A DNA stretch of 31,568 nucleotides from an uncultured Candidatus Saccharibacteria bacterium (GTDB lineage Bacteria > Patescibacteriota > Minisyncoccia > Minisyncoccales > CAZWDF01): contig CAZWDF010000002.1 in NCBI GenBank assembly GCA_964632335.1, positions 1 through 31,568 of the forward strand, written 5' to 3'. Numbering within the stretch: the stretch's first letter is position 1; each line of letters opens with the position of its first letter. Below the pieces are notes generated by a model. The model was not told the origin of the DNA. It saw only the letters and a program-made list of their open reading frames with translations, and did not search any database. This document shows, one piece after another, positions 1-31,568 of the stretch. Made by a program: the position numbers and the translations under genes.

Positions 1-55
1 TGCTATTGACCAGTGGTCGATACATCCTCCAAAATTTAAGGCATAGGAGCAAAGA
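1..55. repeat. 55-bp terminal direct repeat (copy 1); assembly overlap indicating a circular or circularly permuted 31,513-bp genome
   Basis: 1-55 is identical to 31514-31568; 55 is a common de Bruijn k-mer size. Confidence 0.95.
6..35 (+). promoter_or_regulatory. Possible sigma70-type promoter of the structural operon
   Basis: TTGACC (6-11), 18 nt, CAAAAT (30-35), upstream of SD TAGGAG and ATG 59; weak -10. Confidence 0.4.
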
Positions 56-58
56 CTA

Positions 59-154
59 ATGGGTAAGACAACCGAACTTATAATCATGTTTGTCGTAGTG
101 GTCGTGGCGGTCATCGTAGCTGGCTGGATTAGCAAAAAGATAATCCCAGCATAG
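59..154 (+). CDS. 31-aa single-TM peptide (not in ORF track), probable virion membrane protein
   Basis: SD AGGAG then MGKTTELIIMFVVVVVAVIVAGWISKKIIPA*. Confidence 0.7.
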   Translation: MGKTTELIIMFVVVVVAVIVAGWISKKIIPA

Positions 155-174
155 TGAGAATGGAGTGCTGACGC

Positions 175-217
175 ATTAGGGCAGAGCGACTTTTACAGAA
201 AGCCTATCTGCCCTAAT
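175..217 (+). terminator. 11-bp stem hairpin in the structural-operon leader (attenuator, processing site or terminator)
   Basis: ATTAGGGCAGA (175-185) / TCTGCCCTAAT (207-217). Confidence 0.55.
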
Positions 218-222
218 TTCTA

Positions 223-239
223 GTCGAAGACTCTTCGAG
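223..239 (+). promoter_or_regulatory. Dispersed 17-bp palindrome, copy 1
   Basis: GTCGAAGACTCTTCGAG; TCGAAGA-C-TCTTCGA is a perfect inverted repeat just upstream of the SD for ORF 253. Confidence 0.7.
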
Positions 240-252
240 TTAGGAACTAAAC

Positions 253-438
253 ATGCAGTGGGACAAGTTACTCATAATCGTTTTACTGGTTGCGATAGCA
301 GTCATGCTTCACAAGTTAGTCACCCGCAACTCTACTTTGAAAACTACAGCATCTAAGACTCCGCTAGGGGTAGCTACAGAAGCCACAACGGCACAAGAAG
401 CACTGTTGTTAGCTTATCCAAATTGTAGAACTATTTAG
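253..438 (+). CDS. 61-aa N-terminal TM protein, probable virion membrane protein
   Basis: Hydrophobic LLIIVLLVAIAVML; directly upstream of the capsid genes. Confidence 0.65.
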   Translation: MQWDKLLIIVLLVAIAVMLHKLVTRNSTLKTTASKTPLGVATEATTAQEALLLAYPNCRTI

Positions 439-451
439 GAGGTAATGAACT

Positions 452-946
452 ATGGCAGTTGCAGTACTCAGGTCAATCAAATCAGAGATATTTTACCTAA
501 CGCAAGCGGATGCCACTGCCCAAACGGATTCCCAAGTAGAAAATTACGCTTTGCGGTATACCTATGCACCGATTTGGAAATATCAAGTCCCGGTGAACCA
601 AGAGTTTGTCTTGGCTCCAGAGCACAAGCTCTCAGTCTATATTGAGGACGATGAAAGTAGCCCTGCCGAATGGCGTAGTACGCAAAAAGTGAGGGTTGAG
701 TGGTGGGATGCTAGTCTCAAAAAGATGGAGATTATCTGGGAGGGTCGCTATATATCATGTAAAGAGGAGCAGGATCAAGATAAGATGGCACGTCTTGATA
801 TTATAGGTGGTGAACCGCTAGAAGTGAAATCTGGGGATTGGATTATTATTGCTGGTATGTCTGATGACACGCTGTATACGATTGATGTCTCAGATAGCCG
901 ATTTACCCTTGAATGTCGAAGGTTTAGACCGACCCTAATCCAATAG
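452..946 (+). CDS. Major capsid protein 1, single vertical jelly-roll (Halopanivirales-like)
   Basis: SD GGAGGT; paralogous to 960 and 1868 (WKYQVP, KVRVE..D, KEEQDQDKM); IDVSDSRFTL resembles SH1 VP7 C-terminus as recalled. Confidence 0.72.
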   Translation: MAVAVLRSIKSEIFYLTQADATAQTDSQVENYALRYTYAPIWKYQVPVNQEFVLAPEHKLSVYIEDDESSPAEWRSTQKVRVEWWDASLKKMEIIWEGRYISCKEEQDQDKMARLDIIGGEPLEVKSGDWIIIAGMSDDTLYTIDVSDSRFTLECRRFRPTLIQ

Positions 947-959
947 AGGAGGCAAATAT

Positions 960-1853
960 ATGAAAGAAGTCAAATTTCAACTGACTGACCTAGACCCCAA
1001 CATCACGGAAGATGGTGTTTTTGGGGCTGCTAAGTGGTGCGATACTTGGAGCTTCCAATGCCCTGAAAATATGGGCATTTTGCTGAAACCGGGGGACTAC
1101 TTCTCCATGAAGATGTACGACACTGGTGATGCTGAAATGGCTGCCCCAGATGCCCAGGTCAAGCTCGAAGTTCGTGACCCCTCTGGTCAGGTAGTAGGTG
1201 TTGTCTTCCCACCTGAAAACTACCTTAGCGTAAAGGAATTTCAGCAATACTCCAAGATGGCACAGCTTTGGATAGAGCAACCAATCCTGGTCACTCCCCG
1301 CAGCAAGATTGTCGTTATGACCAAGGATGATCTTGGTACGGATGCAAGTGGTATTGTTCTGAGTTATGCCCGGCTGATAACAACTAAAGTGCTAGGCACA
1401 TTCGCCAAGGGGCAATCACCAAGCCTACCGAGTATTGAGCCTTTCGTTATCATGCAAGAGGATTCCGATGTAACGCAAACAAGTAGCACCGCTGGGAGCC
1501 TGACTGACCTATTCGTCTATCGAGTACCAAAGGGCAGAGCGATAATTCTGAGACCGAGCGATGTCTTTGCCTGCTATCTCTATAACACTTCTTCCGCGGT
1601 CGCAACCAATACCTGCCCGGTAAAACTCGAAGTCCGCGATGCCACTGGCTTAGAGAAAAAGCCCATTCTTGGACCGCTTCAATACGGTAGCTTCCAGGGA
1701 GAGTTCCAGGATAAGGACAAGCTCGTTCACCTTGACATCAACGGCGAACTGACAGTAGTGGAGCAGGAATACATCGCCTTGATGGTAAACAACGCTGTAG
1801 CGATAAACTGTGCTACGAGCTACATGTCGCTTCGTTGCCATATCCGGAGATAA
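960..1853 (+). CDS. Major capsid protein 2, two tandem jelly-roll domains
   Basis: Homologous halves (LLKPGDYFSMKMY..VKLEVRDPSG..KEFQQYSK vs ILRPSDVFACYLY..VKLEVRDATG..GEFQDKDK); MKMYDTGDAEM resembles P23-77 VP16 LKLYDTGGNQL as recalled. Confidence 0.78.
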   Translation: MKEVKFQLTDLDPNITEDGVFGAAKWCDTWSFQCPENMGILLKPGDYFSMKMYDTGDAEMAAPDAQVKLEVRDPSGQVVGVVFPPENYLSVKEFQQYSKMAQLWIEQPILVTPRSKIVVMTKDDLGTDASGIVLSYARLITTKVLGTFAKGQSPSLPSIEPFVIMQEDSDVTQTSSTAGSLTDLFVYRVPKGRAIILRPSDVFACYLYNTSSAVATNTCPVKLEVRDATGLEKKPILGPLQYGSFQGEFQDKDKLVHLDINGELTVVEQEYIALMVNNAVAINCATSYMSLRCHIRR

Positions 1854-1867
1854 AGGAGGCTGCCTAA

Positions 1868-2332
1868 ATGGTTATGACGGCAGTTAAAGAAGAGCGATTC
1901 GAAGTAAACCCGGCATCAACGGGGATAACCGAGCAAGATGGTAGGGGTACTAATTGGTGGGATATTTGGGACTTCAAAGTGTCTCTAAACCAGGTCGTTA
2001 TCCTGCGCCCCACGGATGTATTTTCGTGCTACCTTGTGGGTGACGATGCCGCCGCGATGCCTAACGCCACGAAAGTTCGGGTAGTCAAGCGGGATGTCGC
2101 TAATGAGGACTCTATACCTATTCTCCCGGTGGTGAATTATAAGCAGGCTCAGGAGTTTGCCGATAAGAACTTACAGATGCACCTTCGGGCTCTGGGTGGA
2201 GTTATGGAGGTGGTAGCAGAGGAGCATATCGTAGTTCAGGTTTCCGGGGCTGATGCTACGGGAACTGGAGATACCGATGCTTCGGCATCTCACTTCAAGA
2301 TATTTTGCACCAGAAGGAGAAAGTCGCTCTAA
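1868..2332 (+). CDS. Major capsid protein 3, single vertical jelly-roll
   Basis: ILRPTDVFSCYL, ATKVRVVKRD and QEFADK motifs shared with the 960 domains; SD AAGGAGG. Confidence 0.72.
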   Translation: MVMTAVKEERFEVNPASTGITEQDGRGTNWWDIWDFKVSLNQVVILRPTDVFSCYLVGDDAAAMPNATKVRVVKRDVANEDSIPILPVVNYKQAQEFADKNLQMHLRALGGVMEVVAEEHIVVQVSGADATGTGDTDASASHFKIFCTRRRKSL

Positions 2333-2379
2333 GTAACGATAACTTTAGCTGGGCTACCTTGGTAGACGGTAGCTTCGCA

Positions 2380-2419
2380 GGGAGACTACCAGGTAAAGGT
2401 AGCCTCCCTATTTGTTTTT
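2380..2419 (+). terminator. Intrinsic terminator after the capsid genes, with a competing upstream stem
   Basis: GGGAG-A-CTACC / GGTAG-C-CTCCC followed by TATTTGTTTTT; GGCTACCTT (2352-60) can pair with AAGGTAGCC (2396-2404). Confidence 0.6.
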
Positions 2420-2438
2420 AGGAGAAGAGGGCAAGTCA

Positions 2439-2636
2439 ATGGCAAAAATGAGTAAGGCTGAGGCAAAGAGAATAGCACAGAGAAATGGTATCAGCTTCAA
2501 TGTAGGCTATCATACACTTCGCTCAAGCCAAACTGAACTATTGTCTGAACTCGCTAAGAAGACAGGTTATAGGAAACCAGCAAGTGCTAGTGGATCAAGA
2601 GCAAGGTATTTCTTCTATTACCTTGCCAAGAGATAA
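2439..2636 (+). CDS. Small basic hypothetical phage protein (65 aa)
   Basis: ATG at 2439 after a purine-rich SD; GYRKP..SGSRARYFF motif recalled from phage hypothetical proteins. Confidence 0.6.
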   Translation: MAKMSKAEAKRIAQRNGISFNVGYHTLRSSQTELLSELAKKTGYRKPASASGSRARYFFYYLAKR

Positions 2637-2681
2637 AAGGCAAAAGGACGGAAATAATATCCGCTTCCTGGAGGGCATGAC

Positions 2682-5543
2682 ATGACAATAGCATTTACAA
2701 GAGCAACTAGAATAGATGAGATAGATCCGAGCTATCTTCCCGATAACGATACCCTGAGCTTCGGCGATGATTTCCCCATGAACATAGTCTGGGATACCAA
2801 AGACGCTAATGCCAATATGGGGAAAATCAACCTACCGAGTGGCGGAGCGATTGATGTGCCGGTACTAGCAATAGGCATCGGGATCATAGACGTTGACCTT
2901 GGCTGGGCTAATGGGGTAACAGAACCATCAATAGCCATTGTTGACGCTGACCGAGATAGCTACATCACTTTCGGATTTGCTTCAGACGATAATGCCCAAA
3001 TCCAAAAAGGTGGTAGCGCGTGGTTTTCCATGAGTCTCGGTGGTACTGTGCCAGCAACCGTTGACCATAGTTCGGGACTAACTGGGGTAAGCGCAGTCTA
3101 TAATGACCTCGGCACTCTTGTCTCTAATCAAACCTATCGAGGCATCTACGGGCGATGGAATGTCAAAAGCACCACGCCGTCTAACCCTACCTGCGAAGTA
3201 ACAGGCATTGAAGGGGCTGCTGGGTCGGCTATCAATGACGAGGCGATAACCTTCCGAGGCGGGTATTTTAGAACTTACATTGACACTGACACATTAGCAA
3301 CTGCCTCCATGCGCACCAATGTTGGCTGTGAAATATCAGCGCGCGCTGCTTATCTTGGTGGAACTGAGGCAACGGCTGAGGGTGGCACAGCCTTTATCGG
3401 CGCTCGCATCTGGATGGCCCCCTATTTCAGTGACGCTAGCATAGGGAATATAAACAACTTCCACGCCTTATGGATAGTAAACGAGGCAGACGGAAAGACT
3501 GTCACAAATGCCATAAAGATAGATTCGAGCACTTATGGCGGTGGATTCTCCTATGCTTTCTACACCGATGGTGGGCGCTTCTATCAGGTCGTAGACGGCT
3601 CTGTTAATGGCTCTCTTCTTCAAGCTGCGGATAGTTCGGCAACTGGCTGGAATCTTATTGAGGCAAGGGCTGAGGACTATCGGACACTAACAAGTAGCCA
3701 GGAATATAAAGGGGCTTATGTCCGCTACAACGTGCGGTCTACTACTCCCAGCAATCCCACCTGTGAAGTCACTGGTATTGAGGGCGTAGCAGGTAGCTAT
3801 ATTGCCGATGAAGCTATAACTTTCAGGGGCGGCTACTTCCGCACCTATATCAATGCAGACGCTACCTCCACCATGAGAACTGCCGTGGGTTGCGAGATTT
3901 CAGCCCGGGCAAGTTATAGCGGCGGAACGCAATGCGTTGCTGAAGGTGGGACTGCCTTTGTGGGAGCCAGGATTTGGATGGCCCCATACTTCACTTCGGG
4001 GTCTATTGGGAACGTTAATAACTTTCATGGCCTCTGGATTGTCAATGAAGCTCCAGGTAAATTCGTTACGAATGCCATTAAGATAGATGCCACGACCTAT
4101 AACAGTGGATTTACCTACTGCTTTAATACTGATAGTGGCAAATTCCGCATGGCTCTTGATGGGAGCGAAGCTGGTAGTGGCTTGCTAGCCGGGGAGACTG
4201 CAACTGCTACTGGCGATGATTGGTTCTATCTTCAGGTTGATGACTGCCGTACCCTGACTTCCCTACAAACCTACCGGGCAGCTTACATCCGAAACAACAT
4301 TCGCTCGACTACCCCTTCCAATCCCGCCTGCGAGGTTACGGGAATAGAGGGAGTCGCGGGAAGTTACATCGCTGACGAAGCTATCACGTTTAGAGGGGGC
4401 TACTTCAGGACTTATACCAACGCCGATGCCACGAGCACAATGAGGACGGCGGTAGGATGCGAGATAAGCGCCAGAGCATCATATTCTGGAGGGACAGAAT
4501 GCGTAGCGGAGGGCGGCACGGCTTTCGTTGGGGCAAGAATCTGGATGGCTGGCTACTTTACCGATGCTTCTATTCCAAATGTAAACAATAGCCACGCTCT
4601 TTGGATTGTCAACGAAGTTCCACACGGAGCGAATTGGGCTAAATATGTTGATAGAGCCATCACCATAGACTCCAATACTTACGGAGCAGCTTTTAACTAC
4701 AACTTCTACACCGATACGGGCAAGTTCTACATGCACCTTGATGGAGCGGTAGCTGGTTCCGGTGTAGTAAAAGGTGAACGATTAAGCACTTCTGGTGACG
4801 ATTGGATGTCGGTGATAATAGACGATTACCGAACTCTTACTTCAGATCAGACCTATAATGGAGCCTTCTTCCGCTATAATATCCGCTCTACGACTCCTGG
4901 GGCTCCTCAAATGGAGGTCAACGGCATTGAAGCCGTAGCATCGACTTACGTTGCTGATGGCAACCTTCTGAGTATGCGAGGTGGTCATTTACGCTGCTAC
5001 ATTCAGCCTGGGGCTACAGCATCAGCAAAGACTTCGGTAGGTGCGGATATATCGGCCAGAGCTTCTTATAATGGCGGAACAGCCTGTCAAGCCTTAGCGG
5101 GTACTTGTTTTACTGGTCTCCGAATATGGATGGCTCCGTATTTTACCGGCGGCACAGTAGGTAACATTAATAACTTCTGGGGCTTGTGGATATTCGGTGA
5201 ACACTCTAGCCAACGAAACGCCGATGCTGCTATATTCATTAGTGATGCTGGAGGTGGTTATGTTGATGGTATCCGAATCAGCTCTGTTCTTTCGGGTTAT
5301 GGTATAGACCTAAACGGTTCAACGATAGCTACAGCAGACATTAGGATGAATAACGGTTGCGTGATAAACAACGATTTGGTCGATAGGATAATGATTGGGG
5401 CAGCTATCGGGATATGCAATGACGCGGCGCCGTCTGCCAATGCTCCAGCTAATGCTTGCGTCATCTACTTTGACGGTACGAACATAAAAGCAGTGAACGC
5501 TGCTGGAGCACACGCTACATTAGATAACGCAGGATTCGCTTAA
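2682..5543 (+). CDS. 953-aa spike/fibre-like protein with four ~190-aa internal repeats
   Basis: Repeat core STTPSNP.CEVTGIEG.AGS.I.DEAITFRGGYFRTY..GCEISARA..WMAPYF at nt 3192, 3762, 4329 and 4911; Gly/Ala/Thr-rich beta composition; follows the capsid genes. Confidence 0.7.
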   Translation: MTIAFTRATRIDEIDPSYLPDNDTLSFGDDFPMNIVWDTKDANANMGKINLPSGGAIDVPVLAIGIGIIDVDLGWANGVTEPSIAIVDADRDSYITFGFASDDNAQIQKGGSAWFSMSLGGTVPATVDHSSGLTGVSAVYNDLGTLVSNQTYRGIYGRWNVKSTTPSNPTCEVTGIEGAAGSAINDEAITFRGGYFRTYIDTDTLATASMRTNVGCEISARAAYLGGTEATAEGGTAFIGARIWMAPYFSDASIGNINNFHALWIVNEADGKTVTNAIKIDSSTYGGGFSYAFYTDGGRFYQVVDGSVNGSLLQAADSSATGWNLIEARAEDYRTLTSSQEYKGAYVRYNVRSTTPSNPTCEVTGIEGVAGSYIADEAITFRGGYFRTYINADATSTMRTAVGCEISARASYSGGTQCVAEGGTAFVGARIWMAPYFTSGSIGNVNNFHGLWIVNEAPGKFVTNAIKIDATTYNSGFTYCFNTDSGKFRMALDGSEAGSGLLAGETATATGDDWFYLQVDDCRTLTSLQTYRAAYIRNNIRSTTPSNPACEVTGIEGVAGSYIADEAITFRGGYFRTYTNADATSTMRTAVGCEISARASYSGGTECVAEGGTAFVGARIWMAGYFTDASIPNVNNSHALWIVNEVPHGANWAKYVDRAITIDSNTYGAAFNYNFYTDTGKFYMHLDGAVAGSGVVKGERLSTSGDDWMSVIIDDYRTLTSDQTYNGAFFRYNIRSTTPGAPQMEVNGIEAVASTYVADGNLLSMRGGHLRCYIQPGATASAKTSVGADISARASYNGGTACQALAGTCFTGLRIWMAPYFTGGTVGNINNFWGLWIFGEHSSQRNADAAIFISDAGGGYVDGIRISSVLSGYGIDLNGSTIATADIRMNNGCVINNDLVDRIMIGAAIGICNDAAPSANAPANACVIYFDGTNIKAVNAAGAHATLDNAGFA

Positions 5544-5555
5544 TGAGGAAAGGTA

Positions 5556-5741
5556 ATGCAACTAATAACGAGAGAAAATCCAGCTACCGTTGTGTTAGTA
5601 GGTAGAGAGATGAGCCAAATGGCTCAAGGTGAGAACTTAAAGATAAAGGTGGCTGGCGTTGAAACTCTTAATACTGAAGTGCCACACGGGAAAGTGTGGG
5701 TGGTTGATATATCTGTGACCATAAAGGAAACTGCGGCTTAA
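5556..5741 (+). CDS. Small beta-rich structural or accessory protein
   Basis: SD present; lies in the spike module. Confidence 0.55.
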   Translation: MQLITRENPATVVLVGREMSQMAQGENLKIKVAGVETLNTEVPHGKVWVVDISVTIKETAA

Positions 5742-5754
5742 TAGGAGGTAAAAG

Positions 5755-6171
5755 GTGAAGAGAGTCAAAATCGATGACAAGCCTAAGACTATTCTAGGTA
5801 AGGCTTTCAGGGTAACGAATCCCGAAGGCGAAACATTTGGGGAGACTTATGTTTGTGAGCGATGCGGTAATGAGATAGTCGTGCAGAAGCCAAAGATGAT
5901 TGAAGAGGCAAGTTTGGTTGACCTCTTGAAGTTGCTAGTTCTTTCAATCCCCCGGCAGAAATGCACCATGCAGGACTCCATAAACGCCTTTGACTTCATG
6001 CAGCAGTCAAAGGAGTCCCAGGACGGCGTTCTAGCACTTACGGACGGCATACACGATTGGCTAAAGAAGGCTGTCAAGGAAAACGGGACTCAAATCTTTG
6101 GAGTCAATGCCAATGCGATAGAGAAGGCTTTGGAGAATTTCGAGAGGGTAAAGGAAAGCAAGGGGAAGTGA
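5755..6171 (+). CDS. Hypothetical protein with CxxC (CERC); possible spike chaperone
   Basis: SD GGAGGT, GTG start; function inferred from position only. Confidence 0.55.
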   Translation: MKRVKIDDKPKTILGKAFRVTNPEGETFGETYVCERCGNEIVVQKPKMIEEASLVDLLKLLVLSIPRQKCTMQDSINAFDFMQQSKESQDGVLALTDGIHDWLKKAVKENGTQIFGVNANAIEKALENFERVKESKGK

Positions 6172-7220
6172 TGTTTGACCCAACATCAGCACTATTAGGT
6201 GGCGCGGCTGCCTGGATACTCAAGCCTGGCAATGGTAGCAAGGCTATTACTGCACAACTACTTGAAAAGTTAAGTGCGGATAAGCCTAGCGTCTATGATG
6301 TGCTGACTTATGATGCTTTGGAAGCCAGGGACAATAAAGAGATAACTGTAGCTGGGGATTTTATCAATGTGGTGCATTACCCAACAACCGTTCCTTTCTA
6401 TATCAGGCTGAATGAAAAGGACAACCCCGCAATAGACTTAAATAGGCTGAAGACTATTCGCTACCCATTCTACCGCTTCTTTCTGACTAACATAGCTGGT
6501 GCGGGAACGATAATCTTGAAGGTAGGTAGGGGCTTGCAGCTTGAAGAAGAGAGCTATGGCATAGACGAACTAGCAGCGCGCATGGCCTCCCCAGTCACCT
6601 TTGACCGAAGGGGAGAGGTTATCTGGATAGAGAATTTTGAGAATAGCACAAATAAGTTAGTCACAGTAACGACTGCTCCCCACGCTAGCACCTTTGCCAT
6701 ATCGACTACAACGGCTCGAAACGGGGCAAGCTCAGGTTTACTTAGTATAGCAGTAGGCGAAACACTAACTGTCAGAAAGACCTTGGGCTTGACGCACCTA
6801 TCGAAAGTAGGGCTCGAAATATCCTTTACCCTAAGCGATTCCATCAACAATATCACTGCTAGCATCTATGTCAATGACGGTTCTTATTTACATTGGGCTT
6901 CTATTCGCTACCTTGAAAGCGACTCGAAACTGTATTACTACAATAGCGCCGGTGGTTTTACAGAGCTATATGAAACGCTTGATCTGGCAATTGCAACGCA
7001 GACCTTTCATACGCTGAAGTTCGTTGTGGATTTAACCACTCACAAATATGTGAGGATGATGCTAGACAATATAGCCGTTGATATGTCAACGCTGGCTTAC
7101 TATTATGCGGCCTCCGTGTCGTCACCATCGGCAGCCTTCCAGCTTGCCGTAGAGAACAATGCCATAGGTACGCAATATATCTATCTTGACGACATGATAG
7201 TAACGCAGAACGAACCATAA
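6171..7220 (+). CDS. Vertex/penton-like protein: N-terminal jelly-roll-like domain plus C-terminal lectin-like beta-sandwich
   Basis: Likely start ATG 6171 (MFDPT), coupled to the upstream stop; FYIRLNE..IDL..PFYRFFLTN.A domain followed by a VIWIENFE beta-rich domain. Confidence 0.55.
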   Translation: MFDPTSALLGGAAAWILKPGNGSKAITAQLLEKLSADKPSVYDVLTYDALEARDNKEITVAGDFINVVHYPTTVPFYIRLNEKDNPAIDLNRLKTIRYPFYRFFLTNIAGAGTIILKVGRGLQLEEESYGIDELAARMASPVTFDRRGEVIWIENFENSTNKLVTVTTAPHASTFAISTTTARNGASSGLLSIAVGETLTVRKTLGLTHLSKVGLEISFTLSDSINNITASIYVNDGSYLHWASIRYLESDSKLYYYNSAGGFTELYETLDLAIATQTFHTLKFVVDLTTHKYVRMMLDNIAVDMSTLAYYYAASVSSPSAAFQLAVENNAIGTQYIYLDDMIVTQNEP

Positions 7221-24446: not shown

Positions 24447-24456
24447 TGTTTTCCTT

Positions 24457-24708: not shown

Positions 24709-24720
24709 GTCTCTCCTTTC

Positions 24721-24933: not shown

Positions 24934-25170
24934 TTACTTCATCCTCTCCGTAAATTCCTTCTTTGTGAGACCGCAATCCAAACAAACTCCATCTGAGAAA
25001 AAATGACCGTAGAGGGATCGCTTACCGTGTCTCTTCCATCCAATAACACGGTAGAGTTTGAGTCCCTCTTTTACCGAAGGCTTTGCCATTTTCCCTCTCC
25101 TTTCTTTTAGGCAGCCTGGCGAGCAAAGCGGTAACTCTGCCAAGAGGTGACATGACCTAACGAGGTACAA

Positions 25171-25187
25171 GTCAAAGACTCTTCGAG
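25171..25187 (+). promoter_or_regulatory. Dispersed 17-bp palindrome, copy 7
   Basis: GTCAAAGACTCTTCGAG, 7 nt after the stop of the HTH gene. Confidence 0.7.
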
Positions 25188-25194
25188 CTGGCGC

Positions 25195-25383
25195 TCAAAC
25201 CCCGCCGTTTCCCTTTGTCTGCCTTAACCTTTCTATTTCCCCCTTATCAAGAAACCGAAGATGCCCGATGGCAAGGGGATGTAACTTCCCCGCCTTTATC
25301 CAGTCATAAATTGTTTGGCGGGACACCTTCAGCAGTTTAGCCGCCTCACTGAAGTTTACTAACCTTAGAATTATCTCATCCAT
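25195..25383 (-). CDS. Excisionase/HTH_17-like DNA-binding protein (start MDEIIL)
   Basis: NFSEAAKLLKVSRQTIYDWIKAGKL. Confidence 0.85.
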   Translation of the reverse strand: MDEIILRLVNFSEAAKLLKVSRQTIYDWIKAGKLHPLAIGHLRFLDKGEIERLRQTKGNGGV

Positions 25384-25402
25384 TTCCTTATTTCCTACCG
25401 TT

Positions 25403-25431
25403 ATTTTACACCATACCTTACAGTCTGTCAA
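25403..25431 (-). promoter_or_regulatory. Sigma70 promoter of the early/recombination operon
   Basis: TTGACA-17-TAAAAT. Confidence 0.75.
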
Positions 25432-25493
25432 GTGGTAAAACATTACAATTTTATGACAAAATGAGTAAATTATGTGCTGTTTTGGAAAGTTGA

Positions 25494-26399
25494 CTATACA
25501 TTATCCACTACTTTCCTTTTCGGGCGGTAATCCCCCGCCTGATTCCAGCAGACCTTGCACAGTTTCTTGTCTTTGAACCTAGAGGCAATAGCTTTATTTA
25601 CTGTCTCAAGGCGCTTAAAGCTACAATCCATTGTGGCAATGAGTGGCTTCTCAAACATGTAGAAGTGGTTTACCAAATCTTCAATAACCGCCACTTGGTA
25701 AGGCGTACCCTGCATCGCCATCAAGTCATCCAGGATCAGGAAGTCGCAATCTTTGAGTTCCTTGATTATGCCCTCTGGCCGATCTGTATCTGTCTCCATA
25801 CCCAGCCTCAGCCGGTGCATCAAGTTCCGCACATCGACAAACTTTACCCACAACCCCCGATCCTTCGCCTCCAGTCCAGCAGCAAAGGCAATGTGGCTCT
25901 TCCCGCAACCGTTCACGCCGTATATCAGGAGTAATTTATACTCCGATTGCCCCTTAGATAGTACCCAAGCCGAATGAGCCGCATCATCTATCCCAGGCAC
26001 TTCCCAGTTTAGACTCTCGAACCGGCACTCCCGCCGTGTCTCCGGTATGCCAGAGTGTGCCAGTATTCTCTCTTTCTTCTCGTCTTCCCAGGCTGAGCAA
26101 TGAGGACATGGGGTAACCGTAGTGTCTTCATGGTCTCTTGTCACGATCCAGCCAATATCTAGGCAAGTGAGGCAAGAGGCTTCCCGGTAGGGGTCTACCT
26201 TAGAGGCCACCAGCGGCACCTTCACCCCCATAAACTCATGCCATAACTCAAACTGCCGACCTTTCGGTAAGGTATCGAGCTCAGGATGCAAGTCTCGAAA
26301 CTTTTTCCGCAGCGCGAGCGCCTCTTCCCAAAGATCCTCAAAAGTCTGGGGGCTCGAAGTTATCTCCGAATCGGTCTGTTCCTGGCTTTGTGACATCAT
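25494..26399 (-). CDS. DnaC/IstB-like AAA+ helicase loader
   Basis: CLTC..CPHC Zn motif, Walker A GVNGCGKS, Walker B LILDD; downstream of the initiator. Confidence 0.85.
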   Translation of the reverse strand: MMSQSQEQTDSEITSSPQTFEDLWEEALALRKKFRDLHPELDTLPKGRQFELWHEFMGVKVPLVASKVDPYREASCLTCLDIGWIVTRDHEDTTVTPCPHCSAWEDEKKERILAHSGIPETRRECRFESLNWEVPGIDDAAHSAWVLSKGQSEYKLLLIYGVNGCGKSHIAFAAGLEAKDRGLWVKFVDVRNLMHRLRLGMETDTDRPEGIIKELKDCDFLILDDLMAMQGTPYQVAVIEDLVNHFYMFEKPLIATMDCSFKRLETVNKAIASRFKDKKLCKVCWNQAGDYRPKRKVVDNV

Positions 26400-27027
26400 T
26401 CTGCCTCTCTTTTTTTGCCCAATTTCTTAGTCTACTCTTCCAATCGGCCTTACTATGTTTTGACTTCCTGGAGTGCCAATCGCGGCATTGGCGCAAGTCT
26501 TCAAGGTTAAAATTAGGGTAGGAGACCATAAACTCCGCTAACCATACCGAATCACTCTCACTATCAGATTGCCCCCAGCTAGGTAATATTTGAAGATGTT
26601 TTACTTGAAGAGGACTCACTGAGGGCTCCATGAGGGCTCCGTGAGGGCTCAATGAGTCTGCATCGTGTAGTTTTGGTAAAGTCTTCAATTCTTCTTCTGG
26701 AGTAATGCTGCCTTGGTATTCACCCCAATTAAGAATAGTGATCCCATCTGAGTTCTCCGAAATGCGTACTTGTACTTTGAGTTTCACTAGGGTATTGTCA
26801 AGCAATTCAAGCGGGATATTAAATCGGTTAGCTAGATAACTATGAGGGAAAGGGAATCCCTCTCCTGACTGAATTATGCCAGGAACTCGGCACTCATTGG
26901 CTAAGGCAAGTAAATCCGCCCATATAGACCGCTCGGCTGGGTCTAAGTCAAAGCGGAGGGTGCCTTCAAGCCATTGATGTGTCCAGAGCTTTATCCACCA
27001 TCTCTTTTTTAGGCTGCCTCGCGCCAT
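26338..27027 (-). CDS. Phage replication initiator (replisome-organizer-like)
   Basis: WWIKLW..AERSIWADLLALA N-terminal domain; C-terminal CRDW..KADWKSRLRNW; internal iterons. Confidence 0.75.
   Translation of the reverse strand: MARGSLKKRWWIKLWTHQWLEGTLRFDLDPAERSIWADLLALANECRVPGIIQSGEGFPFPHSYLANRFNIPLELLDNTLVKLKVQVRISENSDGITILNWGEYQGSITPEEELKTLPKLHDADSLSPHGALMEPSVSPLQVKHLQILPSWGQSDSESDSVWLAEFMVSYPNFNLEDLRQCRDWHSRKSKHSKADWKSRLRNWAKKERQNDVTKPGTDRFGDNFEPPDF
26620..26652. repeat. Three tandem 11-bp iterons, candidate replication origin
   Basis: TGAGGGCTCCA / TGAGGGCTCCG / TGAGGGCTCAA next to an AT-rich stretch (26584-26609). Confidence 0.7.
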
Positions 27028-27175
27028 GTAATACTCCTAGTCCAGCTTGTAGACATTCCCTAACCAGCGCCGATTTTTCCTTTCCTTCTATAAGAGCTGT
27101 AGCTGCTAGCTCCCTCATCTGAGCATCGGAAAGTAAAACCACAAGACGATGTTTGTAGAACTTTCGCTCTTTCAC
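26966..27175 (-). CDS. Ribbon-helix-helix (CopG-like) regulator
   Basis: RLVVLLSDAQMRELA..KSALVRECL. Confidence 0.7.
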   Translation of the reverse strand: MKERKFYKHRLVVLLSDAQMRELAATALIEGKEKSALVRECLQAGLGVLHGARQPKKEMVDKALDTSMA

Positions 27176-27182
27176 AGTAGGA

Positions 27183-27210
27183 ATTATACTCCTATGTGCT
27201 TAAAAGTCAA
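27183..27210 (-). promoter_or_regulatory. Sigma70 promoter; probably leaderless RHH-initiator-loader transcript
   Basis: TTGACT-16-TATAAT, 7 nt before GTG 27175. Confidence 0.65.
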
Positions 27211-27320
27211 TACTTTGATGTGCATAAAATACACTCTATTTTTAGAGTTTTAGTGTAATAAAGTTTACTTTTGCTCTTCCTCTTCCTCTTATATCTTTAT
27301 ATTATAATAGTAGAGGGGGG

Positions 27321-27512
27321 TTATAGGGGGGATTTTGGGGTATTGCCCTTCGTCAAGTCGTAAGCCTTCCAGCCCAGCCATGACAAACGGCGTGAGGCTA
27401 ATCTTTCCTCTAGCCAGATAAGCCCCGGTAGATGCAAAACAGCCATAGCAACTTCCACATGGAAGAAAACATGATACGCAAGCCAGCGTTGAATCTTCCA
27501 GCTAGTTTTCAT
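27321..27512 (-). CDS. Small Trp-rich hypothetical protein
   Basis: SD GGAGGT. Confidence 0.5.
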   Translation of the reverse strand: MKTSWKIQRWLAYHVFFHVEVAMAVLHLPGLIWLEERLASRRLSWLGWKAYDLTKGNTPKSPL

Positions 27513-27528
27513 TTTACCTCCCTGAGGG

Positions 27529-28191
27529 TTAGCCTAGAATCTGCCTTAGTTGCTTGTGGGCTATTCTCTTGACTGCGCGTATAAGTAGGAGACTGTGGAC
27601 TTTTCTCCTAAACTTACTTTTCTGTAATAAGCTATGGCAGCTTCTACATAAGATAATTAAGTTACTTTCCTTATTGTTATTTCTATCATAGTCTATATGG
27701 TGTGTAACATACATACCTTTCTCTATTATTGGTTTATGGCATAACTGGCAGGAGCAATCATCCCTCTTTAGAATATCTGGTCTTATAGTATAAAACTCTG
27801 CTGGATACCTTCCCGGATAGCCACCCTTCCAATTAGGGTTTAATTCCCTTATCCTACCAAACATAGGATTATTAGCTCCAAGTAGCCTTTTGCTTCGGTT
27901 TTCTCTATCAGCTAGTGCTGCTTGCCGAATCTTTTGTTTAGTCTCTTCTGATACGGGGTGAGTATCCCAATAACCGCGATAACCTATTGGAGCAGTTCGG
28001 ATTTTCTCCTTTACTTCCTTTGGTAAGTTAGCCATTGCTATCTTAGTAGCTTCGCTCGTCCTTTTCCTTTGTTCTGGCGTACGAACTCTCCCTTTGTTAG
28101 CTATACTCACCTTCAGCCTAAATTCAGGAGTAGTATGGGTAGCTCTTAACCTCTCTAATTGGCTCCCACTATAATGGCTACCTTTTTTCAT
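27529..28191 (-). CDS. NUMOD3-like plus HNH endonuclease
   Basis: NPMFG/NPNWKGG motifs; CQLC..THHIDYDRNNNKESNLIILCRSCH; AT-rich. Confidence 0.85.
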   Translation of the reverse strand: MKKGSHYSGSQLERLRATHTTPEFRLKVSIANKGRVRTPEQRKRTSEATKIAMANLPKEVKEKIRTAPIGYRGYWDTHPVSEETKQKIRQAALADRENRSKRLLGANNPMFGRIRELNPNWKGGYPGRYPAEFYTIRPDILKRDDCSCQLCHKPIIEKGMYVTHHIDYDRNNNKESNLIILCRSCHSLLQKSKFRRKVHSLLLIRAVKRIAHKQLRQILG

Positions 28192-28787
28192 CCCATTATC
28201 TGCCTTGCCTGTTTTTGAGCCTCATCTTTGGCTTGAGCTATATTGATATAATGCTGTCCAATCTCGATACTTTTCCAGCCCATAAAGTAGGAAAGTGCCG
28301 GCGCACTCATTCCCTTAGTAGCTAAGATTGTTGCACAAGTCGCTCGTAAGGCATGGCAAAAGGTAGTATTATACGCCAATCCTCTTTGATGAATCTTAGC
28401 TCTTGAGGCTACTTGTTTAAGTCTCCACCATAGTGATTGTCTTGTTTTTTGGAAGCCTTTGGGGGATAATCGTAGAAACTCTTGGAGGTCTGCTAGTAAT
28501 GGTGTTGTTACTGGGATTGTTCTCACACTTGTTTTAGTCTTAGGATACCACATACCCTTGCATCTGCTACAATCACATGGCTGCGATTCTGGAATGCTGA
28601 TTTCTAAACCAGTAAGAGTATTATGTACCCATTCCGCATTAAGATGAGCAACCTCAGATACCCTCAACCCAGCATAGAGGCAGAGCTTGATTAGAACTTT
28701 ATCCTCTAGGCTCTGACAGGCGTGTATAAGGGCATCCCTTTGCTCTTCGCCTAGGGCGTATCGCTCACTAGCACCCCGTTTAGGCAT
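28188..28787 (-). CDS. Short tyrosine recombinase/integrase (catalytic domain only, SNJ2-like)
   Basis: GLRVSE (R), PKT (K), HALR (HxxR), MGW (W), HY (Y); Cys insert PCDCSRC before WYPKT; 199 aa. Confidence 0.85.
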   Translation of the reverse strand: MPKRGASERYALGEEQRDALIHACQSLEDKVLIKLCLYAGLRVSEVAHLNAEWVHNTLTGLEISIPESQPCDCSRCKGMWYPKTKTSVRTIPVTTPLLADLQEFLRLSPKGFQKTRQSLWWRLKQVASRAKIHQRGLAYNTTFCHALRATCATILATKGMSAPALSYFMGWKSIEIGQHYINIAQAKDEAQKQARQIMG

Positions 28788-28790
28788 TGT

Positions 28791-29561
28791 TCACTCTTGG
28801 CTTCTTTGATTCGGCTTTTTAGGCTCTGTAGGGCTTTCAGGTATTTCTCCCATGCCCCGTCTGATTGGCTCACTTTTCTCCGGTAGTGCTACTTTCTCTG
28901 CTACGGTTCGCGGTCTTTCTTTTTCGGTAACGCTAACGACTTTGGGTTTACGTGATAGCTCTAGGGTTTGTGGTTCCATGGGCTCATTATGCCGCGCTGC
29001 ATCTATGGAGTATTGAAGGAACTCCCAATCGCCAAGATTCATTATACGAGAACACAAATCCTTGCCTACCATATCGGTAATGTATTGCTTAGCTTGGATG
29101 CCACACTGGAAGAAGAAGACATGAGAACAGCGCCCGAAGAAGCGCTTGTTAATCTCCTGGATTCGCTGCGTTACGGCGATGATGCCTATGCCCCAATTTC
29201 GCCCGACATTTATGAGTTCCGAAGTCCACGTTCCGAACCTCATATATTGCCCGATGTAAAGGTCAGCCTCTTCGATGATAAATTGAAAGTCCTTGACAGA
29301 ACACAAGTATTCACAGACATTATTAAACTCTATGATGCTATCGGAATTCTTTGGCAGGTATCGACATTTATCAGGGAAGTTCCGATATTGTTTAAGTGGA
29401 TCATAGATAAGTAATCGATCTTCAGGAATTGCTGAGGCAAGATACTTAGCCATCGTGGTCTTGCCACTACCAGGCATACCACAGATAAGGATTCTATCTG
29501 TGCTACTCATGGGGCGCAGTTGCCCGATGTCGCTATTGGATTGGTTGCTCGGCTCCGGCAT
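28791..29561 (-). CDS. FtsK/HerA-superfamily (A32-like) genome-packaging ATPase
   Basis: Walker A GMPGSGKT, IYDP, Walker B IIEEAD, GRNWGIGIIAVTQR arginine-finger/sensor motif. Confidence 0.85.
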   Translation of the reverse strand: MPEPSNQSNSDIGQLRPMSSTDRILICGMPGSGKTTMAKYLASAIPEDRLLIYDPLKQYRNFPDKCRYLPKNSDSIIEFNNVCEYLCSVKDFQFIIEEADLYIGQYMRFGTWTSELINVGRNWGIGIIAVTQRIQEINKRFFGRCSHVFFFQCGIQAKQYITDMVGKDLCSRIMNLGDWEFLQYSIDAARHNEPMEPQTLELSRKPKVVSVTEKERPRTVAEKVALPEKSEPIRRGMGEIPESPTEPKKPNQRSQE

Positions 29562-29766
29562 CGGCTAACCTTTTGGCTATTTCGATTATCTTGGCCTGGG
29601 CTTCGGGATTGTTGTCTAGCCTCTGTATAATCTCGGGTATGGCGGGCAAAAACATCTTAAGTATCATACCTTGCATACCGCCGATGCCCTTGATTTGCTC
29701 CTCATACTCCAGATATAGGTTTTGTATCTCTTGGGCTAACTGCGTCTTTAGCTCTACGTTTTCCAC
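29533..29766 (-). CDS. Helical hypothetical protein (probable GTG start 29766)
   Basis: SD GGGAGG before GTG; overlaps the ATPase start. Confidence 0.5.
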   Translation of the reverse strand: MENVELKTQLAQEIQNLYLEYEEQIKGIGGMQGMILKMFLPAIPEIIQRLDNNPEAQAKIIEIAKRLADAGAEQPIQ

Positions 29767-30040
29767 GTCTAGCCTCCCTTTTCTTCTCAACTTCCCTGTG
29801 GTGTTCGACATTGAAGACGACCCCGCAATCGCAATAACCGCCATGTTCCTTAGAGTAGGCTATGTATTCCTTCGGGCCTGTAATGCCTAAAGTTGCTAAG
29901 GATGAGGCGAAGAAAGCCAAGTTACCTTTGCAGTTCCATGTAATAGATTCTACCCCACATGACTTCTTCTCAGGACATTTATTGCACGTTTTTCTTTTGG
30001 GATATTTCTCACATCGGAAATCGCACTTCTCCTCAGTCAA
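29702..30040 (-). CDS. DUF2695-like Cys-rich protein
   Basis: HGGYCDCGVVFN motif. Confidence 0.5.
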   Translation of the reverse strand: MTEEKCDFRCEKYPKRKTCNKCPEKKSCGVESITWNCKGNLAFFASSLATLGITGPKEYIAYSKEHGGYCDCGVVFNVEHHREVEKKREARRGKRRAKDAVSPRDTKPISGV

Positions 30041-30078
30041 TTCAATAGCCTTGTCTAAGAGGTTCAGGTCTATCGTAT

Positions 30079-30567
30079 TTATGCTCCTTCTCTTGCCTCT
30101 TTGATTTCCTTTTCCTTCTCAGGCATTGCCCCTACTGGTTTTTCCTTTGAGCCTAGCGCTCCGCCTTGCCTCCGCCAAATGCCATAACCTACCACACGGC
30201 CACCGTAGAGCGTGGCTATGAGAAGTAGAAGTTGAATCTTGGCATCCATTTCGATGTTCAGAGCGTTGACGAGCTCTACCACATCGTTTAGCTCCTCTGG
30301 TGATAACTTCCAGCCTTCCCACTTGGTAAGAGTAGCTAAAAGTTCACCAGGCAGCCCTGCTGCCCCCCGGATGAAGGAAGGCATCAGGGGAGCCTTCCCA
30401 GGGGCAGCCACAGCGCCAGGAGGGGGCTTTTCAGCCTCTTCCTTCTCTCCCTCCTGCCTGATTGTCTCTGCCGTTATCGGTGGCTCATATTCGCCCTCCG
30501 TGGGCTTGAATGGCGATGATAAAGGTGGGGCTGTTTCGTCTTTGGAATCGGGATGCTGCATTGTCAT
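30079..30567 (-). CDS. Membrane protein upstream of the packaging ATPase
   Basis: Acidic/Pro-rich N-terminus, TM IQLLLLIATLYGGRVVGYGIW. Confidence 0.55.
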   Translation of the reverse strand: MTMQHPDSKDETAPPLSSPFKPTEGEYEPPITAETIRQEGEKEEAEKPPPGAVAAPGKAPLMPSFIRGAAGLPGELLATLTKWEGWKLSPEELNDVVELVNALNIEMDAKIQLLLLIATLYGGRVVGYGIWRRQGGALGSKEKPVGAMPEKEKEIKEAREGA

Positions 30568-30594
30568 TGAGTATTATTCCTTTCTTGAATTATT

Positions 30595-30882
30595 TTAGGC
30601 TAAGTCAAATATGCTTCTCTCTTTACAATAAAGGTCTTGAGCCTCACTCATCTCTATTTCTAACCATGCACCAGCTAGTTCAAAAGTTTTACTACGAATA
30701 AAACCAACAGTCGCTTTTGGATGAATGGCTTGGGCGATAGGCTCAAAATACTTGATTGCTTCGACCAATTCAGTTGTGATTTTAGGAGGCTCCCCAAAGA
30801 GACTGACTATAGGGTTCGGGTGATGTTCCCTCACCCAACCAAGTAAGCCCTCTGGTGGCTTAACTATTTCGCCTCTTGGCAT
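30595..30882 (-). CDS. Hypothetical protein
   Basis: SD AAAGGAG; co-oriented. Confidence 0.5.
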   Translation of the reverse strand: MPRGEIVKPPEGLLGWVREHHPNPIVSLFGEPPKITTELVEAIKYFEPIAQAIHPKATVGFIRSKTFELAGAWLEIEMSEAQDLYCKERSIFDLA

Positions 30883-30895
30883 CTTAATCTCCTTT

Positions 30896-31420
30896 CTAAT
30901 CTAAATCGCTAAATGGTAGAAAGCTAAATTTGTATTTTTCTTTCTTCTGGGATGATTCAGGTGACCCGGGAGACTCTTGAGCTTCTAGGGGAGGGTTATG
31001 ATTGGGAGCTATCATATCAAGCTGACCATCAGTAAGGGGTATCTTTTTCGCTGGGTGCTTTGGCTTCACTCTAGGCTTCGGGGCTAAGCCCTCTTTCGCA
31101 AGGTGCTGGAACTCGCTCTCTGATATGCGCCAGGTATTACCCGTTGGGCGAGTTGCCTTGATGATTTTTGCGTTAATCAGGTGGCTAATCCACGCCCGAG
31201 AATATCCGAAATGCTTGGCTAGGTCTTGAACGCTGTAGTATTTACCGTCAAGGATTCCCTTCGTTTGCTCTGGCGTAGTAGTCGTTTTCTTTAGCTTTGT
31301 TGATGCTGGCGGTTGCTCAGACTTTGGCTGCTCTGGCGTGGTGGTCTTTTCCCCTATAGGTGCTGGTGGCTGCTCTTGTTTAGCTTGCTCTTCCTTCGGT
31401 TTTTCTTCTTCCCCTGCCAT
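30896..31420 (-). CDS. HTH_17/excisionase-like DNA-binding protein with long Pro/Glu/Thr/Lys tails (start MAGEEE)
   Basis: YYSVQDLAKHFGYSRAWISHLI..IKATRPTGNTWRISESE. Confidence 0.75.
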   Translation of the reverse strand: MAGEEEKPKEEQAKQEQPPAPIGEKTTTPEQPKSEQPPASTKLKKTTTTPEQTKGILDGKYYSVQDLAKHFGYSRAWISHLINAKIIKATRPTGNTWRISESEFQHLAKEGLAPKPRVKPKHPAKKIPLTDGQLDMIAPNHNPPLEAQESPGSPESSQKKEKYKFSFLPFSDLD

Positions 31421-31440
31421 ATCGCCTCCTTCTGCTAAAT

Positions 31441-31469
31441 ACTGTAGCGATTTCTGCAATTAAAATCAA
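31441..31469 (-). promoter_or_regulatory. Candidate sigma70 promoter of the HTH-ATPase-integrase operon, divergent from the structural arm
   Basis: TTGATT-17-TACAGT upstream of SD GGAGG and ATG 31420. Confidence 0.5.
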
Positions 31470-31513
31470 GATGTTTACAGAATCTTATTGTTTTAGGAAA
31501 AGAGTAGCAGTTA

Positions 31514-31568
31514 TGCTATTGACCAGTGGTCGATACATCCTCCAAAATTTAAGGCATAGGAGCAAAGA
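31514..31568. repeat. 55-bp terminal direct repeat (copy 2)
   Basis: Exact copy of 1-55. Confidence 0.95.

Follow-up and report, generated by a model that had tools for sequence, protein, structure and literature searches.

The question raised by contig CAZWDF010000002.1 of assembly GCA_964632335.1 is what kind of genetic element it represents and, if it is a virus, where it belongs among known viruses and what it infects. The whole contig of 31,568 nucleotides (nt) was analysed and is referred to as the window; its gene models carry the prefix g, related loci or contigs are labelled L0xx, and proteins of the capsid family P0xxx. A sequence-only reading of this DNA had taken it for the complete genome of a novel tailless, membrane-containing bacterial virus resembling the Halopanivirales, with a probable Chloroflexota host. 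We put at close to 0.8 the probability that the window is a complete circular double-stranded DNA (dsDNA) genome of 31,513 bp, belonging to a tailless icosahedral bacterial virus whose deep lineage, related to the helvetiaviruses, had not been described before. Judged by its genes, the verdict is a deep new branch near that group (Halopanivirales, realm Singelaviria), originating from groundwater. A more specific version, in which this is a new Singelaviria-type lineage, ranking at least as a family, with mesophilic bacteria of groundwater (possibly Chloroflexota) as hosts and a capsid of four paralogs, two of which (B and C) have become fused at least twice independently, is given even odds.

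The placement is carried firstly by three adjacent genes on the plus strand (452-2332), g03, g04 and g05, which together hold four paralogous domains of ~145 amino acids (aa), termed A, B, C and D (Table 1). A single-sequence search of 5.8 billion proteins with g04 returned only g04 itself, and no match was obtained from pattern scans of genome contigs and viral contigs with g04, from comparison of bases 1-16000 (megablast) and of g04 (tblastn) with 50,697 phage records, or from a scan of IMG/VR with the D-paralog alignment. The search with g05 recovered 55 family proteins, mostly 50-65% identical to it, and a profile of the four domain copies found 168 cluster representatives among 1.84 billion proteins, most of which are ~150 aa long. 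One retrieved protein, the 1661-aa repeat protein P0112, was dropped from the family as a spurious low-complexity match. When an alignment of 101 family members was compared with all PDB sequences, the top five hits were small capsid proteins of the Halopanivirales, namely four VP7 sequences of HHIV-2 and HCIV-1 (E-values 1.4e-3 to 0.013) and VP16 of P23-77 (0.026), with SH1 ORF24 following at an E-value of ~1. Alignment of the family with P23-77 VP16 by hhalign gave a probability of 81.5% (E 1.1e-5).

The fold of g04 was modelled with AlphaFold2 using 74 family sequences, which gave an all-beta structure with a predicted local distance difference test score (pLDDT) of 90.1 and a predicted template modelling score (pTM) of 0.60. 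The top Foldseek matches of this model in the PDB are again the small capsid proteins of SH1, HCIV-1, HHIV-2 and P23-77 (E 2e-6 to 1e-5, target-normalised template modelling (TM) scores of 0.67-0.74, and root-mean-square deviation (rmsd) of 2.2-2.7 Å over ~160 columns), and those of the haloarchaeal viruses SH1, HHIV-2 and HCIV-1 are the best per domain (6qt9, 6h9c and 6h82). Foldseek also retrieves the double jelly-roll capsid proteins of STIV, PRD1 and FLiP, at global TM scores of 0.17-0.25 and an rmsd of ~18 Å. As the best per-domain matches are helvetiavirus capsid proteins and the global fit to double jelly rolls is poor, each domain of g04 is predicted to be a single jelly roll of the helvetiavirus type.

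Secondly, g65 on the minus strand encodes an ATPase for genome packaging that belongs to the FtsK/HerA superfamily (A32-like), with the Walker A motif GMPGSGKT and the Walker B motif FIIEEAD. Eleven relatives were found, and the family profile built on them matches the packaging NTPase B204 of STIV over its full length at 1.1e-15, against 1e-7 or weaker for cellular HerA proteins. Comparison with P23-77 ORF13 by hhalign gave 97.9% (5e-13), and a match to phrog_2666 (8e-16) accounts for the sole 'terminase' label in the scans. In tblastn against isolated phages the best matches were the packaging ATPases of autolykiviruses and of Thermus phage phiKo; P23-77 and IN93 were not retrieved among these phage records.

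Thirdly, the same genes recur together. Related contigs were found in groundwater and other metagenomes, the longest being 26-40 kb, and share a core in which an HTH_17 regulator, a g67-like gene, a small gene, the ATPase and a tyrosine recombinase occupy one strand, and the opposite strand has tiny membrane proteins, the genes of the capsid family and a gene like g10, in some cases with one like g12. This divergent layout of ATPase and capsid genes is conserved in all relatives. Only one relative, L011, was found among the 2.9 million contigs of IMG/VR (39.9 kb, ATPase 36% identical). Two further loci, L006 (on a Gammaproteobacteria chromosome) and L012, were set aside as partial ATPase matches lacking a capsid-family gene.

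Bases 1-55 of the window are identical to bases 31514-31568. This exact direct repeat at the contig ends is the assembly overlap of a circular molecule, the unique length of which is 31,513 bp with a G+C content of 46.5%. The genes form two arms, on the plus strand from 59 to ~15,550 and on the minus strand from ~15,800 to 31,459, which converge at a hairpin and diverge across the contig junction, and the GC skew tracks the direction of transcription. The hairpin is likely a terminator for one or both arms. The plus arm carries 11 predicted membrane proteins (g01, g02, g18-g23 and g25-g27; 19-residue Kyte-Doolittle peak of at least 1.6), to which g36 and g62 add two on the minus strand, and the virion is thus read as probably containing a membrane. 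No HK97-fold capsid, terminase, portal or tail family was found by Pfam or PHROGs among the plus-arm products. Pfam gave no match to any plus-arm gene-model product (scanned as concatenated proteins), and PHROGs gave none to the 19 virion products of that arm that were scanned. The features on which the sequence-only reading had based its virus call therefore stand: the circular overlap, jelly-roll major capsid proteins, an A32/HerA ATPase, more than ten small transmembrane proteins, the missing tail genes and a DnaC-like loader were all recovered, as were the three sigma70-like promoter sites, at the positions it gave, and AGGAGG Shine-Dalgarno sites. So does its overall conclusion of a complete, novel, tailless, Halopanivirales-like bacterial virus, with a membrane probable, and the ATPase sits with viral packaging ATPases, well ahead of cellular HerA; a position with plasmid or conjugative HerA proteins was what it had named as a result that would overturn the call. 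It had missed the four capsid-domain paralogs and the fusion in g04.

Compared with the kingdom Helvetiavirae, the window has single jelly-roll capsid proteins, presumably of the vertical type, homologous to VP16 and VP7 by sequence and fold, and an FtsK/HerA packaging ATPase. It does not have exactly two capsid genes, one small and one large with a tower; its three genes hold four paralogous domains, none with a tower insertion. Nor does it have the collinear block of ATPase, small and large capsid genes on one strand. To the existing families Matshushitaviridae, Simuloviridae and Sphaerolipoviridae there is no BLAST-level or PHROG capsid similarity. In the literature, helvetiaviruses are treated as viruses with two capsid proteins (PMC8812541, PMC10848233, PMC12714852), and our search of it found no description of viruses such as this one or of capsid-gene fusion in a group of Halopanivirales type.

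Among the closest known viruses are the Thermus phages P23-77 and IN93 (Matshushitaviridae), which share with the window a bacterial host, a circular dsDNA genome without tail genes, a remotely homologous small capsid protein (VP16 in P23-77), a homologous packaging ATPase and, downstream of the capsid genes, numerous small proteins of the membrane. The genome of P23-77 is 17 kb, however, and encodes one small and one large towered capsid protein, whereas the window has 31.5 kb and four paralogs, two of them fused. In P23-77, ORF13, 16 and 17 are collinear, with the ATPase directly upstream of the capsid genes, whereas the ATPase of the window lies in a divergent operon. The lambda/SPP1-like replication and recombination module of the window is absent from the annotated products of P23-77, which include one 'DNA replication protein', the relatives of the window come from groundwater, and the window itself has no BLAST-level similarity to the Thermus phages. 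The size of the window is near that of the ~30-kb sphaerolipoviruses, and its circular form and possibly temperate lifestyle resemble the simuloviruses (PMC12642351, PMC12643093). The Sphaerolipoviridae and Simuloviridae (including SNJ1) nevertheless have archaeal hosts, whereas the signals in the window are bacterial; they also have two capsid genes and share no replication or regulatory genes with the window, and sphaerolipovirus genomes are linear with terminal proteins.

The Bamfordvirae (PRD1, PM2, autolykiviruses, STIV and phiKo) are likewise tailless and membrane-containing and have ATPases of the same clade, and their capsid protein, like g04, has two jelly rolls per chain. Either domain of g04 nonetheless resembles the single jelly rolls of helvetiaviruses more than it does a half of a double jelly roll, and g04 appears to be a recent join of two genes in a four-paralog array that retains two single-domain members. 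The 'Huracanviridae', compared by description only, are also tailless viruses known from metagenomes, with helvetiavirus-related single jelly-roll capsids, from outside hypersaline habitats and Thermus; their host is archaeal (ANME-1), as assigned by CRISPR spacers (PMC9894754).

Several observations count against this placement and the host proposed with it. No particle has been seen; the virion, with its membrane and the architecture of its capsid, is read from genes, as are the functions given to A-D, g08 and g10-g16. The E-values between the capsid-family profile and the PDB are modest (1e-3), hhalign gives VP17, the large capsid protein, a weak match (15%), and the inter-domain geometry of the g04 model is uncertain at a pTM of 0.60, with no global superposition on double jelly-roll proteins. 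Unlike in known Halopanivirales, the ATPase is not adjacent to the capsid genes, and no endolysin or other lysis enzyme was recognised in the window, whereas P23-77 has several. No long chromosomal contig was found to carry a relative, which leaves integration unproven. Many relatives come from 0.1-µm filter fractions, in which ultra-small bacteria and archaea also abound. The two relatives that carry a Chloroflexota label are on short contigs (13 kb and 8.8 kb) that are wholly viral and belong to a more distant clade (ATPase 49% identical).

The last two points bear directly on the host. Chloroflexota (Anaerolineae-like) is the only taxon for which there is any evidence, and this evidence is weak: two independent studies have binned distant relatives in Chloroflexota metagenome-assembled genomes (MAGs), CAYTNQ010000125.1, labelled 'uncultured Anaerolineales bacterium', and MBI4332190.1, labelled 'Chloroflexi bacterium'. 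It is a serious possibility, at somewhat less than even odds, that the type of virus is as described and the host is a bacterium from elsewhere, for example from the Patescibacteria (candidate phyla radiation, CPR), the Bacillota or a further phylum present in groundwater, and that the MAG labels are binning artefacts. Both the nature of the binned contigs and the enrichment of relatives in 0.1-µm groundwater fractions would fit this, as would the replication genes, which resemble those of phages of many phyla. Agreement between the two studies argues for the Chloroflexota, and the strong use of AGGAGG (Shine-Dalgarno motifs upstream of 23 of 69 starts, compared with a background of 2.8%) would count against hosts that make little use of such sites.

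The cues from which the sequence-only reading had argued for this phylum did not help. The peptide motifs that it quoted are present in g23 and g35, but they match no family, and no Pfam domain, InlB-B-like or other, was found in g22, g23 or g35. These three genes have no orthologs in the related loci and are singletons in clusters at 90% identity. Its proposal of a Chloroflexota host is therefore left with the two distant MAG relatives, and that of Dehalococcoidia is unsupported, with no evidence of any kind. The host check that it had suggested through tRNA and attachment (att) sites gave no clue in the window, where ARAGORN detected no tRNA and Rfam no match. As for habitat, close relatives come from Hainich groundwater wells (0.1-µm fractions, by contig names) and from JGI metagenomes, the names of which do not give a habitat. 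From the Hainich names, the habitat of the host is inferred to be groundwater or subsurface. Groundwater is normally not hot.

The capsid array can be followed through at least 24 related loci, the window included, and the order is A-B-C-D wherever copies can be matched one-to-one, which is not the case for L011. Four separate capsid genes in this order are found in L010, in L015-L018 and in the surveyed metagenome loci, and L010 has, side by side, a separate ortholog for each half of g04 (B 60% and C 56% identical). Leaving aside the window and the lineage of L013, B and C are separate in every surveyed locus in which both are visible (at least 20 loci). Among 25 retrieved family proteins of at least 200 aa, two full domains occur only in g04 and in P0013, the latter from locus L013, whose lineage is 44% identical and shares this two-domain architecture. 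When the B and the C domains were placed in neighbour-joining trees (100 bootstraps), the halves from the window clustered with unfused proteins (L010, P0015, P0016 and P0027) and not with P0013, and for neither half did any of the 100 bootstraps have g04 and P0013 as exclusive sisters. A single origin of the two fusions was rejected on this basis. As the fused proteins are never sisters, B and C were apparently joined on at least two independent occasions.

The former gene boundary can still be recognised. In unfused relatives, B ends 3-8 residues past a conserved 'TTK', C begins 'M(I/R)EPFVITQED', and the spacer between them is -4 to +34 nt and carries a Shine-Dalgarno site. In the window, 13 in-frame codons (a linker of ~14 residues) span the former spacer and AGT occupies the position of the former start codon of C; the linker of L013 is different and has 17 residues. 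It is improbable, in our view, that g04 is an assembly or sequencing artefact, or a recent non-functional read-through, and that the virus uses four separate proteins. Such an explanation would suit the separate B and C genes of the other loci, including L010 as the closest informative relative, and the junction in g04 is known from the assembled sequence alone. Yet the in-frame linker and the AGT codon are not what a one-base assembly error would produce and support a real fusion, both halves are full-length, high-scoring domains with a confident fold, and the independently sampled L013 lineage has arrived at the same architecture with another linker.

Other variation was noted within the family. 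It was considered whether all members of ~300 aa are fusions, and this was rejected; most are one domain with an internal insertion. About 14 members of ~240-300 aa have a single jelly roll with an insertion of 80-145 aa at profile position ~58, reminiscent of the tower domain in VP17 and VP4, the large capsid proteins; they include L013 4775-5656, P0058, P0074, P0077, P0081, P0084, P0086, P0102, P0106 and P0119. Of these, L013 4775-5656 is of the A type and lies directly upstream of the fused B-C gene. D-type paralogs of L042 (1572-2576), L043 (285-1124) and L044 (222-1226) have a C-terminal extension of ~160-215 aa (280-335 aa in total). The region 4358-6481 of L011 (IMGVR_UViG_3300032608_000514) contains four capsid paralogs in a row, two of which are 48% identical to each other, and this suggests that they were in part duplicated independently.

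Most cultured Halopanivirales infect haloarchaea, and an archaeal host from groundwater, such as a DPANN or methanogen lineage, might be considered for the window also. The link of the 'Huracanviridae' to ANME-1, the presence of relatives in 0.1-µm fractions and a weak Pfam match to an archaeal-type integrase family could be cited in its favour. The window, however, encodes a helicase loader of DnaC/IstB type and, by a weak match, a replisome organiser; such proteins act on bacterial DnaB. Three sigma70-like promoters score 11 of 12, all on the minus strand and adjoining gene starts, where 0.5 would be expected (p ~0.015), although a looser count at 9 of 12 is not above shuffled sequence. The relatives encode Sigma70_r4 proteins, the best relatives of the replication and recombination genes among isolated viruses are all bacteriophages, with hosts of many phyla, and the only MAG labels are bacterial. 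From the loader, the phage-type recombination genes, the promoters, the Shine-Dalgarno usage and the Sigma70_r4 proteins, the host is taken to be a bacterium, and an archaeal host is very unlikely. Equally remote is a plasmid or integrative element with lectin-like jelly-roll surface proteins and a HerA/FtsK ATPase for transfer or defence: it would account for the recombinase, the methylases and the many nucleases, and jelly-roll folds do occur in cellular carbohydrate-binding proteins (PMC8812541), but both by sequence and by fold the family finds its best matches specifically in capsid proteins of viruses, the ATPase scores eight orders of magnitude better against viral packaging enzymes than against HerA, the array, the ATPase and the membrane-protein-rich operon co-occur on contigs of 26-40 kb, and Pfam scans of the window products found no conjugation or partition genes.

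Table 1. Positions of genes and other features in the window, with the basis of each assignment (ORF, open reading frame; HMM, hidden Markov model)
Feature	Position	Strand	Basis or remarks
g01 and g02, very small single-pass membrane proteins	59-154 (g01); 253-438 (g02)	+	hydropathy peaks 3.0 and 2.7
g03, capsid-domain paralog A, 164 aa	452-946	+	family HMM 8e-47; 56% identical to L010 8605-9105
g04, tandem capsid-domain paralogs B (residues 2-144) and C (159-296)	960-1853	+	two full HMM domains
g05, capsid-domain paralog D, 154 aa	1868-2332	+	family HMM 6e-45; 63% identical to L010 10001-10450
g07, small basic protein	2412-2636	+	70-74 aa gene after paralog D also in L010 and L015-L019 (position and size)
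g08, 953 aa, four tandem repeats of ~190 aa and a distinct C-terminal part	2682-5543	+	
ORF of 138 aa missed by the gene model	5755-6171	+	ends in ATGA overlap with ATG 6168; no PHROG match
g10, conserved virion-module protein, ~350 aa	6168-7220	+	orthologs in L010 (37%, 6e-66), L001 and L003
Small beta-rich block: g11, g12, g13, ORF 8444-9022, g15, g16	7230-9851	+	
Nine predicted membrane proteins, g18-g23 and g25-g27	9998-13900	+	hydropathy; no family match
g24, free-standing homing endonuclease, LAGLIDADG-like motif LAYIAGLFDGEG	12057-12518	+	phrog_5046 5e-28; no Pfam match
Hairpin, G+C-rich, 14 pairs	15665-15698	+	between convergent plus and minus arms
Modification and selfish-nuclease block	16869-21082	-	Pfam, PHROG
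g38, HNH_3	16869-17291	-	Pfam
g39, C5 cytosine methylase	17288-18124	-	Pfam
HNH ORF	17911-18477	-	Pfam/PHROG
Sigma70-like promoter TTGACG-17-TATAAT, TG extension	18483-18511	-	ends 5 nt before ATG 18477
g43, N6/N4 methylase	19106-19912	-	Pfam
g47, HNH_3	20582-21082	-	Pfam
Recombination genes: g51 VRR-NUC-like nuclease, g54 (phrog_10048), g56 PD-(D/E)XK exonuclease	21857-24578	-	
g59, HTH_17 (excisionase/MerR-like) regulator	25195-25443	-	Pfam 5.6e-11
Sigma70-like promoter	25403-25431	-	upstream of ATG 25383, the probable start of g59
g60, DnaC/IstB-like helicase loader	25494-26399	-	Pfam Bac_DnaA 3.5e-9, IstB 1.6e-7; phrog_50 5.6e-31
Replisome-organiser-like gene (weak match)	26338-27027	-	Phage_rep_org_N 1.2e-3; phrog_1032 1.7e-4
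g61, small protein	26966-27210	-	VapB-antitoxin-like Pfam match (weak, sub-threshold)
Sigma70-like promoter TTGACT-16-TATAAT	27183-27210	-	ends 7 nt before g61 GTG start
g63, HNH/NUMOD3 homing endonuclease	27529-28191	-	Pfam
g64, short tyrosine recombinase, 199 aa	28188-28787	-	Pfam Phage_integrase 3e-17
g65, FtsK/HerA-superfamily (A32-like) packaging ATPase	28791-29561	-	profile, hhalign, PHROG, tblastn
Leader genes of the ATPase operon: ORF 29533-29844, g67, g68, g69 (HTH_17 regulator)	29533-31459	-	orthology

The rest of the plus arm appears to encode further virion components, and the roles proposed here follow from gene position and from analogy with P23-77 and PRD1-type viruses. Ahead of the capsid genes, g02 is 74% identical to its L014 ortholog, and genes of 31 aa and 58/61 aa were called at the position of g01 and g02 in L010 and L014. 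Of the repeats of g08, the first three are 62-71% identical to one another and the fourth ~40%; the protein has no Pfam, PHROG or PDB match, its position holds large variable proteins in the relatives, and it is proposed to be a vertex spike or host-recognition protein. The true start of g10 is taken to be the ATG at 6168. Within the following block, which comprises candidate vertex or penton components, g12 has orthologs in L010 and L011 (48% and 45% identical), and two paralog pairs are present, g11 (7230-7484) with g16 (9588-9851) at 39% identity and ~2 kb apart, and the ORF at 8444-9022 with the adjacent g15 (9023-9577) at 48%. The block gave no PHROG match, profile searches of the PDB with g10, g12, the 8444-9022/g15 pair and g08 returned noise only, and hhalign of g12 against the capsid family was negative. 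The nine proteins of 9998-13900 are proposed to be internal virion membrane proteins; g24 interrupts the virion operon within this cluster. It is one of five free-standing homing-type endonuclease genes in 31.5 kb, the other four being of HNH, HNH_3 or NUMOD3 type.

On the minus strand, the leader genes of the ATPase operon are conserved in position: the ORF at 29533-29844, g67 and g69 have orthologs at matching positions in L001, L003, L013 and L014, with g67 and g69 also having orthologs in L010 and L011, and no ortholog of g68 was detected in the related loci. Orthologs of g64 that are 42-51% identical occur in L001, L003, L011 and L013, and this protein may be either an integrase or a recombinase for dimer resolution. 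In the distant clade, a cassette lies between the ATPase and the recombinase (L001 6098-11497, L003 10651-15822 and L007 1-3307), with two to three glycosyltransferases, one to two radical-SAM enzymes (one with a B12-binding domain) and an epimerase or methyltransferase. It could modify the virion or the host surface, and it is absent from the window.

The best matches of g60 in the phage database are from Bacillus and Ralstonia phages. The replisome-organiser-like gene has within it, at 26610-26653, a direct repeat of 11 bp in four copies (GAGGRCTCNNT). This is a candidate origin of iteron type, and its layout resembles the iteron origins within lambda O or SPP1 G38P. The best relatives of g54, a proposed annealase, are in phages of Lacticaseibacillus, Geobacillus, Myxococcus and Cylindrospermopsis. 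Gene calls clash at 17288-18548, where the HNH ORF overlaps the 5' part of the C5 methylase ORF by ~210 nt; the methylase domain begins only near residue 67, the HNH ORF starts just after a near-consensus promoter, and the 143-aa ORF at 18117-18548 looks spurious. From the layout of promoter and Shine-Dalgarno site, translation of g59 probably starts at ATG 25383 instead, which lies downstream of the promoter at 25403-25431. The other two promoters end so close to a start codon that leaderless mRNAs would be implied. The product of g61 is possibly a regulator.

These parts may be assembled into a working scheme for the proposed virus. As in P23-77, SH1 and HHIV-2, jelly-roll dimers would make up pseudo-hexameric capsomers, and these the capsid lattice. 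An obligate B-C heterodimer within the capsomer would explain how fusion of the two neighbouring genes, apparently on two occasions, left function intact, while A and D may form a second type of dimer, or one of them the five-fold penton, or both. The 11 membrane proteins of the plus arm would line an internal lipid vesicle, the spikes at the vertices would derive from g08 and the g10-g16 block, and the ATPase would pump DNA into a preformed procapsid through a unique vertex. The recombinase could provide for a temperate or plasmid-like carrier state.

Very few helvetiaviruses are known, from haloarchaea, from Thermus and, through metagenomics, from ANME-1 archaea, and this lineage would extend their range to ordinary groundwater bacteria. 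Standard catalogues nearly miss it, with one distant match in IMG/VR and no PHROG for the 19 virion-arm proteins. If the link to the Chloroflexota is true, a tailless virus type would be added for that phylum. The kingdom is defined by having two capsid proteins, a rule broken here by a conserved four-paralog array, and adjacent single jelly-roll capsid genes seem to have fused naturally and recurrently. An origin of double jelly rolls by fusion of single jelly-roll genes was the textbook hypothesis until 2022 (PMC8812541, PMC10848233). For the Bamfordvirae it is now regarded as refuted (also PMC12714852) and has been replaced by an origin from cellular DUF2961 proteins (PMC8812541, PMC10848233). 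The fusions described here do not revive it; they indicate that such a step occurs naturally and, in this lineage, repeatedly. If this is true, the lineage would be a living example of how two single jelly rolls become one two-barrel protein, a transition that would then be accessible and recurrent, and the occurrence of fused and unfused versions among close relatives makes the structural and fitness effects of the fusion testable.

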